Source of the DNA: Candidatus Aenigmatarchaeota archaeon
Lineage (GTDB): Archaea; Aenigmatarchaeota; Aenigmatarchaeia; CG10238-14; SCSR01
Reading direction: 5' to 3'
DNA: 64,000 nucleotides
NCBI GenBank assembly: GCA_016187415.1
Contig: JACPJT010000001.1
Location: 13,634 to 77,633, forward strand
Position 1 is the stretch's first letter; each line of letters starts with the position of its first letter. This document shows positions 6,572 to 54,042 of the stretch, piece after piece. The position numbers were made by a program, and so were the translations under genes. Under the pieces are notes generated by a model. It worked only from the letters and a program-made list of their open reading frames with translations, did no database searches and was not told the origin of the DNA.

Positions 6572-7903
6572 TTGTACTCTCAAGATATTGAGTCGTTGCT
6601 CAACGCCAAGAAGATTAAGATTGGAGATAAAATTTTAGTAACTAAGGTCAATGACGAGTATGCAGGTATACTAATGCCCAGAATCAAGCTCGGCGATATT
6701 TCTTCAATCGTAATAAAGCTCTCAAACGGCTACAACATAGGCATAAAATATGACAAAGATGTGAAAATAAGGCGACTAGAGTCAGGTAAACCAATAAGAT
6801 TCAAACCAGCCGAAACAGTTCCAAGAAAAGACCCCGAAAAACCTACTGTATCGATATTGGGTTGCGGCGGAACTATAGCTTCTAGGGTAGAATACACTAC
6901 AGGAGCGGTATTTCCGGCATTCTCGCCTGCAGACCTGTTATTATCCTTCCCTGAATTGGGGGATATAGCCAATATTAAGGCTAGAAAGTTATTTGACCTT
7001 TTTTCAGAGGATATTACAGCTGAGCATTGGAAAATAATCGCTAACGAGATAATTAAAGAAATACAATCTGGTGTTGATGGTGTTGTTCTTATGCATGGTA
7101 CAGACACTATGCACTATACCGCAGCAGCTTTGAGCTTCATGCTAAGAGATTTACCAGTTCCTGTGATTTTGGTAGGCGCGCAGAGAAGTAGTGATCGTGG
7201 TAGTAGCGATAATCTTGTTAATCTGGTATCAGCTGTAGTCGCAGCAGCACAATCGAGTGTTGCAGAGGTTACCGTATGCATGCATGGAAGTATGAACGAT
7301 GATTTCTGTTATCTGCACCAAGCAACCAAGGTGAGGAAACTTCACACATCCAGAAGAGATGCATTTCAAAGCGTGAACGTAAAGCCTTATGCAAAAATTT
7401 TCTATCCTGACAAAAAAATTGAATATCTGCGAAATGATTACAAACTAAGAGAAAAGAGAACGGTAAAAATCGATGACAAATTGAATACTAATGTAGCACT
7501 AGTTTACACGTATCCTGGAATAAAACCAGAGTTCATACAATCTTTAAGAAATTTTGATGGTGTTGTTATTGCAGGTACAGGACTAGGACACGTTCCTACA
7601 AATCCAACAGGAGACAAATTCACACAAAGTCTGTTGCCAGCATTAAGAAATTTGATTCATTCTAATATCCCCGTTGTAATAGCGCCTCAGACGATATACG
7701 GCAGGTTGGATTTGAATATCTATGAAGCTGGACGCATGCTGAATGAAATTGGTGTGATTGGTGATGGTTGTGACTGGCTCCCCGAAGTTGCTCTCGTGAA
7801 ACTAATGTTTGTATTAGGAAAGACCAAAGATATGGATAAAGTCAGGGAAATGATGTTGACGAACTATGCAGGCGAGATAAGCGAGAGAACTGAAATAAGT
7901 TGA
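6572..7903 (+). CDS. gatD: Glu-tRNA(Gln) amidotransferase subunit D
   Basis: IKLSNGYNIG, GGTIASRV, HGTDTMHY, AQRSSDRGSSD, HTSRRDAF. Confidence 0.96.
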   Translation: MYSQDIESLLNAKKIKIGDKILVTKVNDEYAGILMPRIKLGDISSIVIKLSNGYNIGIKYDKDVKIRRLESGKPIRFKPAETVPRKDPEKPTVSILGCGGTIASRVEYTTGAVFPAFSPADLLLSFPELGDIANIKARKLFDLFSEDITAEHWKIIANEIIKEIQSGVDGVVLMHGTDTMHYTAAALSFMLRDLPVPVILVGAQRSSDRGSSDNLVNLVSAVVAAAQSSVAEVTVCMHGSMNDDFCYLHQATKVRKLHTSRRDAFQSVNVKPYAKIFYPDKKIEYLRNDYKLREKRTVKIDDKLNTNVALVYTYPGIKPEFIQSLRNFDGVVIAGTGLGHVPTNPTGDKFTQSLLPALRNLIHSNIPVVIAPQTIYGRLDLNIYEAGRMLNEIGVIGDGCDWLPEVALVKLMFVLGKTKDMDKVREMMLTNYAGEISERTEIS

Positions 7904-7907
7904 TATT

Positions 7908-9326
7908 ATGGAAGCTAAAATTGGGATTACAGACGGGAAACAGGCTTGGTTAAACCATTCTAATCAAAACCAAGTTTATTTTGCTTCCTTTAAAAAACAT
8001 GTGGGAAATGACCTCCTCCGAAAAGAGGATATGCTATTATTGGTAAATTACATGAGAAAGGTGATGTTAGATGGACAATCTAAATTTAAAGCAGAGCTAA
8101 CGCCAGAAGTTATTAGAAGACTCTATTGGGAAGATAAGAAATCGTTGCCAGAGATAGGAAAACTCTACAGAATTGACAGCGGTAGCTTGTATCGATGGAT
8201 GAAACAACATGGAATACACACTAGGAGTAAATTAGTTGCTGCTCAGCTACATAAAAAATTAACAATTCGCCCAGATAAGTTATATGAGTTATATTGGAAA
8301 AAGTCAATGACGACAAGTGAAATAGGAAAATTATATGACGTATCAGGTGCAGCCGTTCAGCATTTAATGCTTAAGCACAAAATACCTACACGAACTCCTT
8401 TACAAATTGGCTCGTCTAAAACAAAATCCCCATCTTACAAAATACTCCATCATTTGTACATAGTTGAACGAAAATCGACCATAAAAATAGGAAAACAATT
8501 AGGTGTTGCACAAGCCTCTGTACGTAAATGGCTGAAGAAATATAAAATATCTGTTAGAAGTCGCTCTGAAGCGTGCAGAGAATACACGAGAACATCCTTT
8601 TCAGGAGATAAAACTGAGAAATCTTATATGCTTGGATTTTGCGTTGGTGACGCATACGTTTCTAAACGTTACCAGAGTATAGATATACATACAACAACTA
8701 CACATCCAGCGATGATCAAACTTTTTCATACAACATTTTCAGGATACGGTCACCCTTCGAAGTATGCTAGAAGCGGTACTCTACAATATGAATGGGCACT
8801 TCGATGCAGTTTAGATCAATCATTTTCATTTCTTTTAGAAAAATACAAAAGATTGATACCAGATTGGGTTCTTGAAGACGATACTACTTTTTATTCATTC
8901 TTAGCAGGCTATGCGGATGCTGAAGGTTGCTGGATGGTAATTAAATCGCATAAGGACGGCATAGGAGCTTTATTCGAAATTCGGAGTAGAGATGTAAAAG
9001 TTTTAGAAACAATCAAAGCGGAATTAGAAAAGTACGACTATCATCCTACTTTTGGTTTATGCAGTGGGTCGCTACATTTTGTACGTTTGTCTAGAGCCAG
9101 TGAAATTAGAGAACTTGCTAAAAAATTACTCTCATTTTCTAAACATGACGAGAAAATAGAAAAAATGCAGTTCATTCTTGATATCGAAAAAGAGAAAAGT
9201 TGGTCTGAAATTAGACCTAAATTACTAGAATTAAAAGACAAAATTAGGAGTCAAGTTCTTGGGTGTGTACTGAAAGCTGAAGGCTTGTATAAAGAGAAAC
9301 AAAGAATGGAGGTGATGCAACTTTGA
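7908..9326 (+). CDS. free-standing double-motif LAGLIDADG homing endonuclease with three N-terminal HTH repeats (true start possibly 8031)
   Basis: Repeats LY...K.S..EIGK.Y/LG......W/L...H/Y.I..R; motifs YMLGFCVGDA and FLAGYADAEG; AT-rich; GAGG SD before ATG 8031. Confidence 0.85.
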   Translation: MEAKIGITDGKQAWLNHSNQNQVYFASFKKHVGNDLLRKEDMLLLVNYMRKVMLDGQSKFKAELTPEVIRRLYWEDKKSLPEIGKLYRIDSGSLYRWMKQHGIHTRSKLVAAQLHKKLTIRPDKLYELYWKKSMTTSEIGKLYDVSGAAVQHLMLKHKIPTRTPLQIGSSKTKSPSYKILHHLYIVERKSTIKIGKQLGVAQASVRKWLKKYKISVRSRSEACREYTRTSFSGDKTEKSYMLGFCVGDAYVSKRYQSIDIHTTTTHPAMIKLFHTTFSGYGHPSKYARSGTLQYEWALRCSLDQSFSFLLEKYKRLIPDWVLEDDTTFYSFLAGYADAEGCWMVIKSHKDGIGALFEIRSRDVKVLETIKAELEKYDYHPTFGLCSGSLHFVRLSRASEIRELAKKLLSFSKHDEKIEKMQFILDIEKEKSWSEIRPKLLELKDKIRSQVLGCVLKAEGLYKEKQRMEVMQL

Positions 9327-10788
9327 GAAATATTAATTACAAAAGTATCAGGCTGAAGGCTGGACTCGAAAGTTAACAACCGGGTAAATCCACCAACAGC
9401 TTGAGGTAAATCGAAAACTTTTCTGTAGTTGTTCTACAGCTATGAAGGAAAAAGTACCTATCATGACAATATCTAGACGTCAACACCCAGTTGCATCGGA
9501 AATGGGCTTGATAGACACAGCTGCGCAATTTGAATATTTACGCGATAGAACTTTCCATTACCAAGTGTTCAACAATGAAAATTGTCTCGTTGAAGTTGAT
9601 TGTGAACCACCACACAATTTGAATCCTGAGGCTTTAGAGATTGCTCTACAAATTGCACTATTGCTCAATTGCGAGATTCTAAATGAGATTCATGTCATGA
9701 GAAAAACTGTTATTGACGGCAGTAATACAAGCGGATTTCAACGTACGGTAATTGTAGGATTAAACGGTCACATTAGTTACAAAGGTAAAAGAATTCTGAT
9801 AACACAGGTAACTTTGGAAGAAGACGCAGCAGCGATTGTCGATGAAGAGAATGGTAAAGTGGTGTATCGATTAAATCGCCTAGGGGTTCCATTGGTAGAA
9901 ATTGACACAGGAATTCTGGAAGGATACTCACCTCAAGAAATCCAAGAGATTGCCTATTTAATTGGTATAATAGCTCGTTCAACAACTAAAACAAAACATG
10001 GCATAGGTTCAATCAGGCAGGATGTCAATGTCAGCATAAGAAACGGACCGAGAGTAGAGGTTAAAGGCATGCAAGAATTGGGCATGCTGGCGAAGGTTGT
10101 TGAATTGGAAGCCCAGAGACAAACGAAGGAGAAAATCAAAGAAGAAACCCGTGCGGCAAACCCCGACGGTACGACAAGGTTTCTAAGACCTTTGCCCGGA
10201 GCCAGCAGGATGTATCCCGAGACCGATATACCGCCTGTGGTGCTTTCGAAGGAATACATCGATGAAATCAAAAAGAGTTTGCCAGAGCCTTGGACGAACA
10301 AAATTGAACGATTCAAATCCAAATTAAAATTGCCCGATGTGCTGGCAAAGGAAATACTTGGATCAGAATATCTTGATTTGTTTGAAAGGATTGTCGCCAA
10401 AACGAAAGTGGATCCCACTATTGTTGCTAACACATTTGTATCAGTTGTCAAGGATTTGGTTCGAAGGGAGAAAGTGGAGATTAACAGGATACAGGAGCAC
10501 AGGTTCTTCGAACTTTTCGAGTCTCTAGGGGAAAAGAAATTCGTCAAGGAAGCGATGCCTGAGATTATAAAATATCTTGCGGCATATCCGCAGAATGGTG
10601 TAGCTGATGCGCTGAATGAATTGGATTTGAAGCCGATGACATCAGAAGAAGTTCGTGAAATTGCGAAAGGAATTCTTACGCAACCAAATATGCCATTCGA
10701 AAAAGCATACGGGATTGTTATGAGCAAGGTTAGAGGGAAGATAGATGCTCAGGAAGTCATGAAGATTGTCAAGAGTATGGTCAAATAG
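9323..10788 (+). CDS. gatE: Glu-tRNA(Gln) amidotransferase subunit E, join(9323..9370,9388..10788); short form lacking the AspRS-like insertion
   Basis: GGAGGTGA SD then TTG: MRNINYKSIRLKAGLE + IHQQLEVNRKLFCSC in frame with 9442; MRKTVIDGSNTSGFQRT, LNRLGVPLVEI, RPLPGASRMYPETD. Confidence 0.93.
9371..9387 (+). other. putative 17-nt bulge-helix-bulge micro-intron in gatE mRNA
   Basis: AGTTAACAACCGGGTAA separates GGA CTC GAA from ATC CAC CAA CAG; contains an in-frame TAA; CTCG/CGGG helix flanked by AAA and TAAA bulges. Confidence 0.75.
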
Positions 10789-11314
10789 GTTCGACTCTCT
10801 GCATGTCGATTTGTTGTTGGATAGGACGCGCAAAATAACCTCTATACTTTCTTTGTAAATCCTCTCTTCTCCAGTCATTTCCAGTAACAACTCTTCTGCA
10901 ACTATCCGCTCCGCAAGCACAGTTGAACTCGTATTCCAGATGCAAATCCACCATTGCATAATCGATAGTTATTTCTTCATTTGGTTTTATGCGTCTTCTC
11001 GCAACTACAGTTATCCGACCATCGATTCCACAGTTTGGATTGCATGAGTGATTGATATAATCACCACCGTCAAGTTCCTCCGCATGGAGTTTTGCAATTG
11101 CAAAATCCCGACCCACAGCTACGGCAGAAATATCTACAGGCGTTTCGTGTCCGTCAGTTGAAACGGCAAGCTCCCTTAATTGTGAACTGCGCAGTATGTG
11201 CCCACCCCAGACAACCACCTTTTCGCCTTTACGAATATAATAAGTCGCAAATAACCCATAACCTCCAATGTGCGATTCTCTTTTTGAGGTCTTAGGACTT
11301 ACCCAATTATACAT
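10781..11314 (-). CDS. SET-domain protein-lysine methyltransferase with post-SET Cys motif
   Basis: GYGLFA, YINHSCNPN, EEITIDY, CACGADSCR. Confidence 0.92.
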   Translation of the reverse strand: MYNWVSPKTSKRESHIGGYGLFATYYIRKGEKVVVWGGHILRSSQLRELAVSTDGHETPVDISAVAVGRDFAIAKLHAEELDGGDYINHSCNPNCGIDGRITVVARRRIKPNEEITIDYAMVDLHLEYEFNCACGADSCRRVVTGNDWRREDLQRKYRGYFARPIQQQIDMQRVEPI

Positions 11315-32022: not shown

Positions 32023-32113
32023 GCTCAGGTGGCAGAACGGCTATGCAGACTAGATTATCTAGGCAGAAGCGCCTGCAGAGCGTCGCAAGCGAGTTCGACT
32101 CTCGCCCTGAGCT
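32023..32113 (+). tRNA. tRNA-Cys(GCA) with 20-nt intron at position 27/28 (32049..32068)
   Basis: GCTCAGG/CCTGAGC acceptor; removing the intron gives GGCGC-CTGCAGA-GCGTC; BHB-like AGA/AAG bulges; immediately upstream of cysS. Confidence 0.88.
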
Positions 32114-32147
32114 CAATAATTTAATTTAAAACCGTCAATTACTCATA

Positions 32148-53911: not shown

Positions 53912-53999
53912 GGGCGCGTAGCTTAGCCTGGTGGAGCAATCAAATTGGCTCATTCGACTGATACTCGATAGGCCGAGAGTTCAAATCTCTCCGTGCCCA
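53912..53999 (+). tRNA. tRNA-Ile(GAT) with 14-nt intron at 27/28 (53940..53953)
   Basis: GAGC/GCTC helix with AAT and ATT bulges; spliced arm ATCGA-CTGATAC-TCGAT. Confidence 0.9.
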
Positions 54000-54042
54000 C
54001 TATTTATTTAAATCGGACGCACAAATACAATTTAGTGGATAT

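Follow-up and report, generated by a model that had tools for sequence, protein, structure and literature searches.

The question raised by this locus is whether a gatE gene whose reading frame is broken by 17 nucleotides (nt) can still give rise to a full-length protein, and how such an interruption came to be there. The gene lies in a stretch of 64,000 nt, hereafter called the window, from the Candidatus Aenigmatarchaeota archaeon assembly GCA_016187415.1 (contig JACPJT010000001.1, positions 13,634 to 77,633 of the forward strand). An initial sequence-only reading had proposed that the 17 nt are a bulge-helix-bulge (BHB) micro-intron. Since other archaea have related introns at this very codon boundary, the insert is best read as an archaeal BHB intron within the gatE mRNA, an assignment that we consider probable. 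What goes beyond the sequence-only reading is a putative homing-endonuclease gene upstream of gatE and a patchy distribution that resembles that of a mobile element.

The first gatE exon (9323..9370, plus strand) was delimited by translation and by alignment with the N-termini of relatives. It begins with a TTG start codon at 9323, encodes M/L-RNINYKSIRLKAGLE and ends with the codons GGA CTC GAA (9362-9370). These are followed by AGT TAA, and translation of the unspliced message stops one codon into the insert (stop at 9374-9376), as had been noted before. The second exon (9388..10788, plus strand), which encodes IHQQLEVNRKLFCSC... up to the stop codon, is an open frame of 466 amino acids (aa) that opens only at ATC 9388, right behind a TAA at 9385-9387. 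As the 5' and the downstream frames do not overlap, simple ribosomal frameshifting was rejected. Excision of the 17 nt at 9371..9387 (plus strand), which contain the stop codons of both the exon-1 and the exon-2 frame, restores LKAGLE|IHQQLEVNRKLFCSC in frame; GLE is joined to IHQQL and translation gives the conserved GatE N-terminus, in agreement with the sequence-only reading. The junction-spanning peptide predicted from in-frame splicing is AGLEIHQQLEVNR. Four 17-nt registers (9369-85, 9370-86, 9371-87 and 9372-88) lead to one identical product because AAA flanks the insert at both ends.

The first in-frame ATG, GTG or TTG of exon 2 is located at 9442, where a gene caller would place the start of a truncated gatE, just as had been anticipated. 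Therefore, the conserved 18 codons from 9388 to 9441 have no start codon of their own, yet they stay open and retain every conserved GatE residue of the stretch IHQQL...KLFCSC. This motif is kept in all relatives examined, and its histidine presumably coordinates the metal in the active site of GatB/GatE. The gatE product scores 494 bits against the NCBIfam GatE equivalog NF003107 (cut-off 456), while the product starting at ATG 9442 begins at profile position 39. These findings bear on the possibility that no splicing takes place and that GatE is either translated from ATG 9442, lacking its ∼40 N-terminal residues, or assembled from two pieces. The second variant would have a parallel in Nanoarchaeota, whose split genes for the Glu-tRNA(Gln) amidotransferase are touched upon in PMC3655853, and the first would agree with the choice of a gene caller. 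Given that the 18 start-less codons are open and conserved in all relatives examined, we regard both variants as very unlikely.

Compared over 9442-10788, the GatE proteins of the window's genus and of many relatives in the same order and class are ∼483 aa long and do not have an insertion domain of ∼140 residues, which is present in the GatE proteins of 600-630 aa in another genus (termed g33) and in other families. The profile and tblastn matches of the window GatE fall in two stretches separated by a gap.

That the insert is part of the DNA, as the sequence-only reading supposed, is borne out by assembled Logan contigs of four runs from two studies, all of which contain it; a search for sequencing runs with this stretch listed no RNA run among them. 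The contigs of three runs (X1, X2 and X4) from one groundwater study, possibly the source of the assembly, span 9170-10800 with neither differences nor gaps. A 1,389-nt contig from a fourth run (X5), which belongs to a second study on lake water, spans 8802-9460 with 21 substitutions and no gaps, and none of the 21 falls within 9334-9460. The X5 population is ∼3% different in the neighbouring gene, yet the 17-nt allele and its flanks are unchanged; the endonuclease gene contains 16 of the listed X5 differences, 10 of which are synonymous. With identical contigs in three runs and the fourth from another study, an assembly artefact was excluded. Past 9460, the X5 contig continues with 52 nt of homologous but strongly diverged sequence in which five consecutive codons differ, and the boundary at 9460 is either a recombination or co-conversion boundary or the end of a chimeric contig. 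No copies of the 17-mer were found elsewhere in the genome at up to 3 mismatches.

All nine other genomes of the same genus with a gatE locus possess an uninterrupted N-terminus (GLELHQQL...), and the insert is therefore not ancestral to the genus. In relatives the gatE start codon directly abuts the gatD stop codon, an arrangement found in eight of these nine genomes, and the gatE site reads mostly GLE, in a few cases GFE or GIE. In genus g33, to which genomes G085-G093 belong, G089 and G093 have a gatE broken by a 31-nt insert at the identical codon boundary GLE|IH. A third genome, G092, carries a 29-nt insert at the same boundary; here gatD abuts gatE with no open reading frame (ORF) in between, and two metagenome loci carry the same type of 29-nt allele. 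The gene is uninterrupted in G085, G086, G087 and G091, while in G088 and G090 gatD and the endonuclease ORF lie at the contig end and the gatE start is unseen. By scanning species-representative genomes with an alignment of the upstream ORF, we found a further case in G371 (locus L086), which lies outside the phylum set of the window and is treated here as a member of another phylum (its listed relatives have 0.8-2.0 Mb). In this genome gatA is followed by a homologue of the endonuclease and then by gatB, and it is gatB that a 29-nt insert interrupts, again between GLE and IHQQ.

Interruptions were thus seen in 1 of 10 gatE loci in the window's genus (11 genomes, with the locus of G004 not found), in 3 of the 7 gatE 5' ends seen in g33 and in 1 of the 41 genomes around G371. 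A pattern scan of 371 genomes of the window's phylum returned only G089, G092 and G093 (the pattern excludes the window by design), and a scan with looser gaps of the 41 genomes around G371 returned only G371. Likewise, a pattern scan of metagenomes yielded only the two loci of the G092 type and no new variants. The class-wide search for GatE covered the best ∼150 of ∼650 matches, and interruptions in distant families may be missed. Apparent stops inside the gene in G055, G057, G134, G125 and G121 were merely the stop codon of the upstream gene.

According to the account of the motif in PMC5829648, a canonical BHB consists of two 3-nt bulges on opposite strands with a 4-bp helix between them. 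The inserts of G089/G093, G092 and G371 all fit this 3-4-3 arrangement exactly and are flanked by an outer and an inner helix (hBHBh'). In the three g33 genomes the outer helix h is GGA/UCC, the central helix H is CUUG/CAAG, the 5' bulge is AAA, the 3' bulge is UUA and the inner hairpin comprises 8-10 bp, 10 bp being the length in the 31-nt insert. The corresponding elements in G371 are UGGA/UCCA, CUCG/CGAG, AGA, UCA and 8 bp. Cuts behind the second base of each bulge remove exactly the insert and restore the frame in all three homologues, and the lengths of 17, 29, 29 and 31 nt fit a removed RNA, not an inserted peptide. The strong point of the evidence is this positional coincidence, in which both putative cut sites match the insert edges to the base in independent lineages and in two paralogous genes. 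In an alignment of all four lineages, 93.8% of the cells in helix h, 100% of those in helix H and 93.8% of those in the inner hairpin are paired, compared with 34-38% for slid partners. One pair of the central helix changes on both sides (C-G in two lineages, U-A in two) and one on a single side (U-A to U-G). The window insert has its first bases AGTTA and the AACC located 5' of the central helix in common with these introns, and it is very probably homologous to them.

A ribosome that bypasses the 17 nt would be another way to reach the downstream frame, as it does at the bypass site of phage T4 gene 60. The stop codon two codons after GAA and the hairpin formed by the region, a feature of known bypass sites, are in keeping with such an event. 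However, no matching take-off and landing codons are present (GAA versus UAA), and the homologues vary in length but all keep the BHB. Ribosomal bypass, or an assembly artefact in its place, is barely credible as an explanation.

The minimum-free-energy fold of 9345-9407 in the window has a stability of -20.0 kcal/mol, compared with -12.5 ± 2.6 kcal/mol for shuffled sequences (z = -2.84; 0 of 200 shuffles as stable), and it coincides with the fold that the sequence-only reading had described. The BHB core (9361..9392, plus strand), defined by this fold and by pair counts on the four-lineage alignment, contains the outer helix h (UGGA 9361-64/UCCA 9389-92) and the central helix H (CUCG 9365-68/CGGG 9381-84, with the pairs C-G, U-G, C-G and G-C). 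The 5' bulge is AAA (9369-71), the inner hairpin h' consists of 3 bp (9372-74/9378-80), and the 3' bulge is UAAA (9385-88), one base longer than canonical. The flanking helices of a BHB, h between the exons and h' within the intron, are therefore both present in the window copy. An extended exon-exon pairing (9348..9404, plus strand; 9348-55/9397-9404 and 9358-59/9393-94) closes the motif and is weakly conserved, with 72.5% of the cells paired over the four lineages.

Owing to its 4-nt 3' bulge, the window copy represents a relaxed form of the motif, and the relaxed geometry had been recognised in the earlier reading as well; alternatively, the motif could be read with a central helix of 5 bp. 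For 17 rather than 16 nt to be removed, one of the two cuts would have to fall one base off the canonical position, either behind base three of the 4-nt bulge or behind base one of the 5' bulge. The window copy is, to judge from its sequence, a shortened and relaxed derivative in which most of the inner hairpin has disappeared and the 3' bulge has become one base longer. The first codons of exon 2 (I, V and S of IHQQLEV..FCSC) are g33-like and unlike those of the window's own genus, which may be a trace of co-conversion of the flanking exon but may equally arise because helix h requires AUCCA. The relaxed 4-nt bulge would also make this locus a natural test substrate for the specificity of the alpha4-type endonucleases of DPANN archaea.

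The host (G000) encodes both a splicing endonuclease and an RtcB-type ligase, the two enzymes on which removal of a BHB intron would depend. Its assembly of 735 kb in 10 contigs, which is 93.9% complete, contains one EndA gene (PF01974, 97.5 bits, G000:C6:109708-109986). Over its full length of 189 aa, the EndA protein can be aligned with the M. jannaschii alpha4 enzyme (E 3e-30), relative to which it has a Lys-rich insertion of 6 residues between the Tyr and His regions. RtcB is encoded in one 960-aa frame on contig C2 (PF01139; G000:C2:140925-143642, minus strand). Its Pfam match is split (profile positions 1-187 and 183-426) by ∼460 residues, an interruption that has the appearance of an intein within this ligase gene. 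ARAGORN identified 29 tRNA genes, many of them with introns or odd lengths, and several contain BHB introns of the canonical 3-4-3 type, which are 13-39 nt long, lie at both standard and non-standard positions and leave normal tRNAs upon removal. In these tRNA introns, cuts after the second bulge base give proper tRNAs. Within the window, a gene listed by ARAGORN as 'tRNA-???' (53912-54000, plus strand) becomes a tRNA-Ile(GAT) of 75 nt upon removal of a canonical 14-nt BHB intron, while a 'tRNA-Stop' (32023-32114, plus strand) is a miscall.

We also considered whether this genome could do without GatE. The only other match to gatE in the genome is GatB at 26% identity; gatE is therefore single-copy, and the intact second gatE that would have spoken against the earlier reading was not found. 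The adjoining gatD gene (6572..7903, plus strand, 443 aa) is intact according to the ORF list and to tblastn of its protein against relatives, in which gatD adjoins gatE. One class-Ic aminoacyl-tRNA synthetase gene, resembling that for glutamyl-tRNA synthetase, is split over two contig ends (G000:C3:79881-80105 and G000:C6:6-683), an indication that C3 and C6 are neighbouring contigs. Since this is the only synthetase gene of its class in the assembly, no glutaminyl-tRNA synthetase was found. With a single gatE, an intact gatD and no such synthetase found, the GatDE pathway appears indispensable.

Several findings speak against an intron that is spliced correctly here. A 4-bp helix flanked by two 3-nt bulges cannot be drawn for any of the four 17-nt registers, and canonical cuts on both sides would excise 16 nt and destroy the gatE frame. 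A BHB-like motif is frequent by chance: a genome scan that combined the relaxed motif with ORF joining gave 44,551 and then 9,631 matches, and a tighter version gave 399, which is far too many without homology, and the motif alone is therefore weak evidence. Even the strict BHB motif turned up by chance in 6 out of 63 unrelated stretches of ∼360 nt (∼1 in 10). The covariation rests on four sequences with one fully compensatory pair, and 139 of 500 shuffles reach the observed score, which is not significant. In addition, the EndA appears to be of the alpha4 type, which PMC5829648 presents as the classically strict one. A tRNA-Arg gene on contig C2, considered as a precedent for a 4-nt bulge, was rejected because the canonical 3-nt reading gives a better T-stem; therefore, the genome offers no internal precedent for the needed cut, with one tRNA tested.

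If the window copy were a decayed intron, EndA would cut it wrongly or not at all, and gatE would be a recent pseudogene in this genome, while the introns of G089, G092 and G371 would be functional. The 4-nt 3' bulge with its frame-shifting 16-nt excision fits this explanation, as does an alpha4-like EndA in a genome whose tRNA introns examined obey the canonical rule. However, exon 2 is open over 466 codons with a G+C content of ∼40%, and the nonsynonymous (pN 0.12-0.17) and synonymous (pS 0.74-0.81) differences of gatE from its relatives resemble those between pairs of intact genes. Decay is likewise difficult to reconcile with the unchanged allele in the second population, which is 3% different next door, and with an intact gatD in a genome where no glutaminyl-tRNA synthetase was found, all the more as archaeal GatCAB is reported not to serve tRNA-Gln, according to a title in the reference list of PMC3655853. 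Finally, DPANN alpha4 enzymes with an extra loop go together with disrupted tRNA genes in the description given in PMC5829648, and the EndA of this genome has its 6-residue insertion. We therefore hold a decayed intron to be unlikely. Because of the extra base in the 3' bulge, correct splicing of the window copy is something that we infer, and in-frame splicing is nevertheless the likely outcome. The interpretation as a BHB intron put forward by the sequence-only reading is thus supported, mainly by the homologous canonical introns at the same boundary.

Between gatD and gatE sits a free-standing gene of 472 aa (7908..9326, plus strand), the product of which is predicted to be a LAGLIDADG homing endonuclease. 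The N-terminal half of the protein consists of helix-turn-helix repeats (Pfam HTH families), while the C-terminal half is a double-motif LAGLIDADG domain (...LGFCVGD... and ...FLAGYADAEG...). The Pfam family LAGLIDADG_3 was detected in all four aligned homologues (best E 1.6e-8), while the window protein alone reaches 17.6 bits, below the cut-off of 22.5, and a profile match to I-AniI was obtained with an E of 1e-4. The AlphaFold model (predicted local distance difference test 84, predicted template modelling score 0.85) has the topology expected for two alpha-beta-beta-alpha-beta-beta-alpha units. Its top Foldseek matches are all LAGLIDADG homing endonucleases (I-AniI, I-SmaMI, I-OnuI and I-Tsp061I, probability 1.0), and the G-D and D-A-E-G columns, which hold the acidic motif residues, are invariant in five homologues.

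The family is present in 25 of 118 genomes of the order in a patchy manner, and homologues also occur in many small-genome archaea and in bacteria. The gene is located between gatD and gatE in G000, G005, G088, G089, G090 and G093 and not in the other relatives examined; in the window's genus, it is missing from this position in 8 of 9 genomes with a gatE locus. Endonuclease gene and intron occur together in G000, G089, G093 and G371, the gene alone in G005, the intron alone in G092 and neither in most genomes. Such a scatter is compatible with collaborative homing, a process described to date only for phage group I introns. Where both occur, they are 41-48 nt apart, in three lineages. The homologue of G089/G093 is 59% identical to the window ORF and that of G371 49-52%. 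The intron-associated endonucleases are ∼50-62% identical to each other, compared with 37% to the enzyme of G005 from the same genus, and they are each other's closest relatives regardless of the host. In G005 (locus L040, G005:C19), gatD, a distant endonuclease (37-41% identity) and gatE follow each other without an intron, and gatE reads GHELHVQL, an unusual motif at the insertion site.

These data suggest a small and apparently mobile family of introns directed at the codon boundary GLE|IH(Q)Q, which gatE has in common with its amidotransferase paralogue gatB. Whether the endonuclease drives its spread is about evenly balanced in our judgement, and the fact that gene and intron are separable, as seen in G092 and G005, counts against a common movement. 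It would be compatible with a real intron to the spread of which the endonuclease is unrelated, the enzyme targeting the gatD|gatE junction and the intron either hitch-hiking or being inherited vertically with many losses. The second, distant endonuclease lineage at the same junction in G005 points in this direction, and so do other LAGLIDADG-like ORFs beside core genes. One of these, an ORF of 319 aa (...GIQVGDGSM..., ...FMRGLADTDF...; G000:C6:108459-109418, corresponding to L082:460-1419), lies directly upstream of endA. However, both elements are rare, yet they stand 41-48 nt apart in three lineages, and the enzymes that accompany introns are most closely related to each other whatever the host. 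One of the lineages, moreover, involves gatB with gatA upstream in a different phylum, so that what is shared is the GLE|IH site and not an intergenic junction; this points to GLE|IH-coding DNA as the target. Vertical inheritance cannot explain frequencies of 1 in 10 in the window's genus, 3 in 7 in g33 and 1 in 41 around G371. An endonuclease unconnected with the intron is thus a real possibility, although a less than even one.

A third and weaker endonuclease homologue of this genome is located at G000:C2:179728-180339. In a search for BHB motifs 3' of 68 loci with endonuclease homologues, only scattered matches were obtained beyond the gatE and gatB cases. As some of these lie in bacterial records, BHB motifs at other endonuclease loci are attributed to chance.

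Under the intron reading, expression of the locus can be envisaged as follows. The gatD-endonuclease-gatE region would be transcribed, and exon 1 would pair both with the beginning of exon 2, through UGGA/UCCA, and with the 3' portion of the intron, through CUCG/CGGG, which would place the junctions in the bulges. EndA, the single tRNA-splicing endonuclease of the genome, would then cut at GAA|A and AA|AUCC, RtcB would join the exons, and the ribosome would read MRNINYKSIRLKAGLE-IHQQL... as full-length GatE. At the DNA level, the LAGLIDADG endonuclease would recognise the sequence encoding the near-universal GLE-IHQQ motif of GatB/GatE and cut intron-less alleles, whereupon the cut allele would acquire both the endonuclease gene and the intron as copies made during repair. 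The intron would split the target of the endonuclease and thereby confer immunity, while its removal by the tRNA-splicing enzymes of the host would avoid any cost. In such collaborative homing, a BHB micro-intron of 17-31 nt and a free-standing LAGLIDADG gene would form a two-part mobile element, an idea with roughly equal prospects of proving right or wrong. Since two essential genes that are paralogues of each other contain the target motif, the element would within this model have crossed from gatE in DPANN archaea to gatB in another phylum.

The arrangement in G371 has a peculiarity. The endonuclease ORF (L086, that is G371:C1, 2522-3834) has no stop codon before exon 1 of gatB; it continues in frame across ...VGLRIGLE until a TAA within the intron terminates it, and no ATG, GTG or TTG start for gatB exon 1 is found in the 29 codons upstream. 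Therefore, the spliced mRNA would encode an endonuclease-GatB fusion and the unspliced mRNA the endonuclease alone, and splicing would decide between the two.

In the window, the TGA stop codon of the endonuclease ORF overlaps the TTG start codon of gatE (TTGA). A Shine-Dalgarno-like motif, GGAGGTGA (9308..9315, plus strand), is located 7 nt 5' of this TTG; its function is assigned from its sequence, and G089 and G093 have a Shine-Dalgarno-like motif of gatE with identical sequence and spacing. At its other end, gatE overlaps by 8 nt with the 3' end of a convergent gene (10781-11314, minus strand) for a SET-domain protein of 177 aa (Pfam PF00856, E 3.6e-16).

If confirmed, these findings would add an essential translation gene of ultra-small archaea to the spliced archaeal mRNAs. 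Micro-introns would then be mobile and cross phyla, which would provide a concrete route by which protein genes gain tRNA-type introns, and collaborative homing would be widened from phage group I introns to protein-spliced introns. They would also be a warning concerning gene callers, since truncated genes (here from ATG 9442) or pseudogene calls would distort metabolic reconstructions of DPANN archaea. In our literature search, for which subscription journals and supplements were mostly outside the scope, neither a gatE or gatB intron of the BHB type nor a free-standing endonuclease accompanying any BHB intron came up.

The closest known counterpart is the cbf5 pre-mRNA intron of Crenarchaeota, which was reportedly described by Watanabe in 2002 and by Yoshinari in 2006. 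The host genes here are instead gatE and gatB, which encode tRNA-dependent amidotransferases, in a DPANN lineage and one more phylum; the EndA is alpha4-like, whereas cbf5 splicing has been linked to a hetero-tetramer, and the cbf5 intron has no associated endonuclease. The cbf5 intron is removed by the tRNA splicing endonuclease and has a relaxed motif, as would apply to the present case, and, as portrayed in PMC2738675, it was gained and lost among relatives and long taken for a frameshift. The same source (Yokobori 2009) gives its length as 16-44 bp, "too short" for an endonuclease gene, and states that no other archaeal pre-mRNA intron had been confirmed by 2009; in PMC5829648, too, the pre-mRNA examples of the BHB are limited to cbf5. 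A review of 2023 names cbf5 and HVO_1309 as archaeal mRNA substrates of the splicing endonuclease and expects more (PMC10485636). In Haloferax volcanii, HVO_1309 provides the second archaeal mRNA for which cutting by this enzyme is documented; it resembles the present case in this respect but concerns another gene and organism, and the review's entry on it reports no mobility or association with an endonuclease.

Archaeal rRNA introns such as those of I-DmoI and I-Tsp061I also combine BHB splicing with a LAGLIDADG endonuclease that gives mobility, and deletion derivatives without an ORF are mentioned in PMC2738675. In contrast to these, the endonuclease considered here is encoded by a separate cistron 41-48 nt upstream, and the intron of 17-31 nt resides in an mRNA. 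In this separation of intron and enzyme, the locus is reminiscent of the psbA group I intron of cyanophage S-PM2 and the free-standing F-CphI (Zeng 2009, as summarised in PMC6083498), where an ORF-less intron in an essential-gene site likewise has the endonuclease gene adjacent to it. There, the host allele is shielded by the intron, and both elements owe their mobility to the endonuclease, in the outline of collaborative homing given by PMC6083498, and trans-homing of T4 mobE with I-TevIII is a further case of this kind, as treated in PMC2790892. While these known cases are self-splicing group I introns of phages with enzymes of the Endo VII or HNH type, the system proposed here would pair a LAGLIDADG enzyme with a BHB intron that is spliced by proteins and resides in the genomes of archaeal cells.

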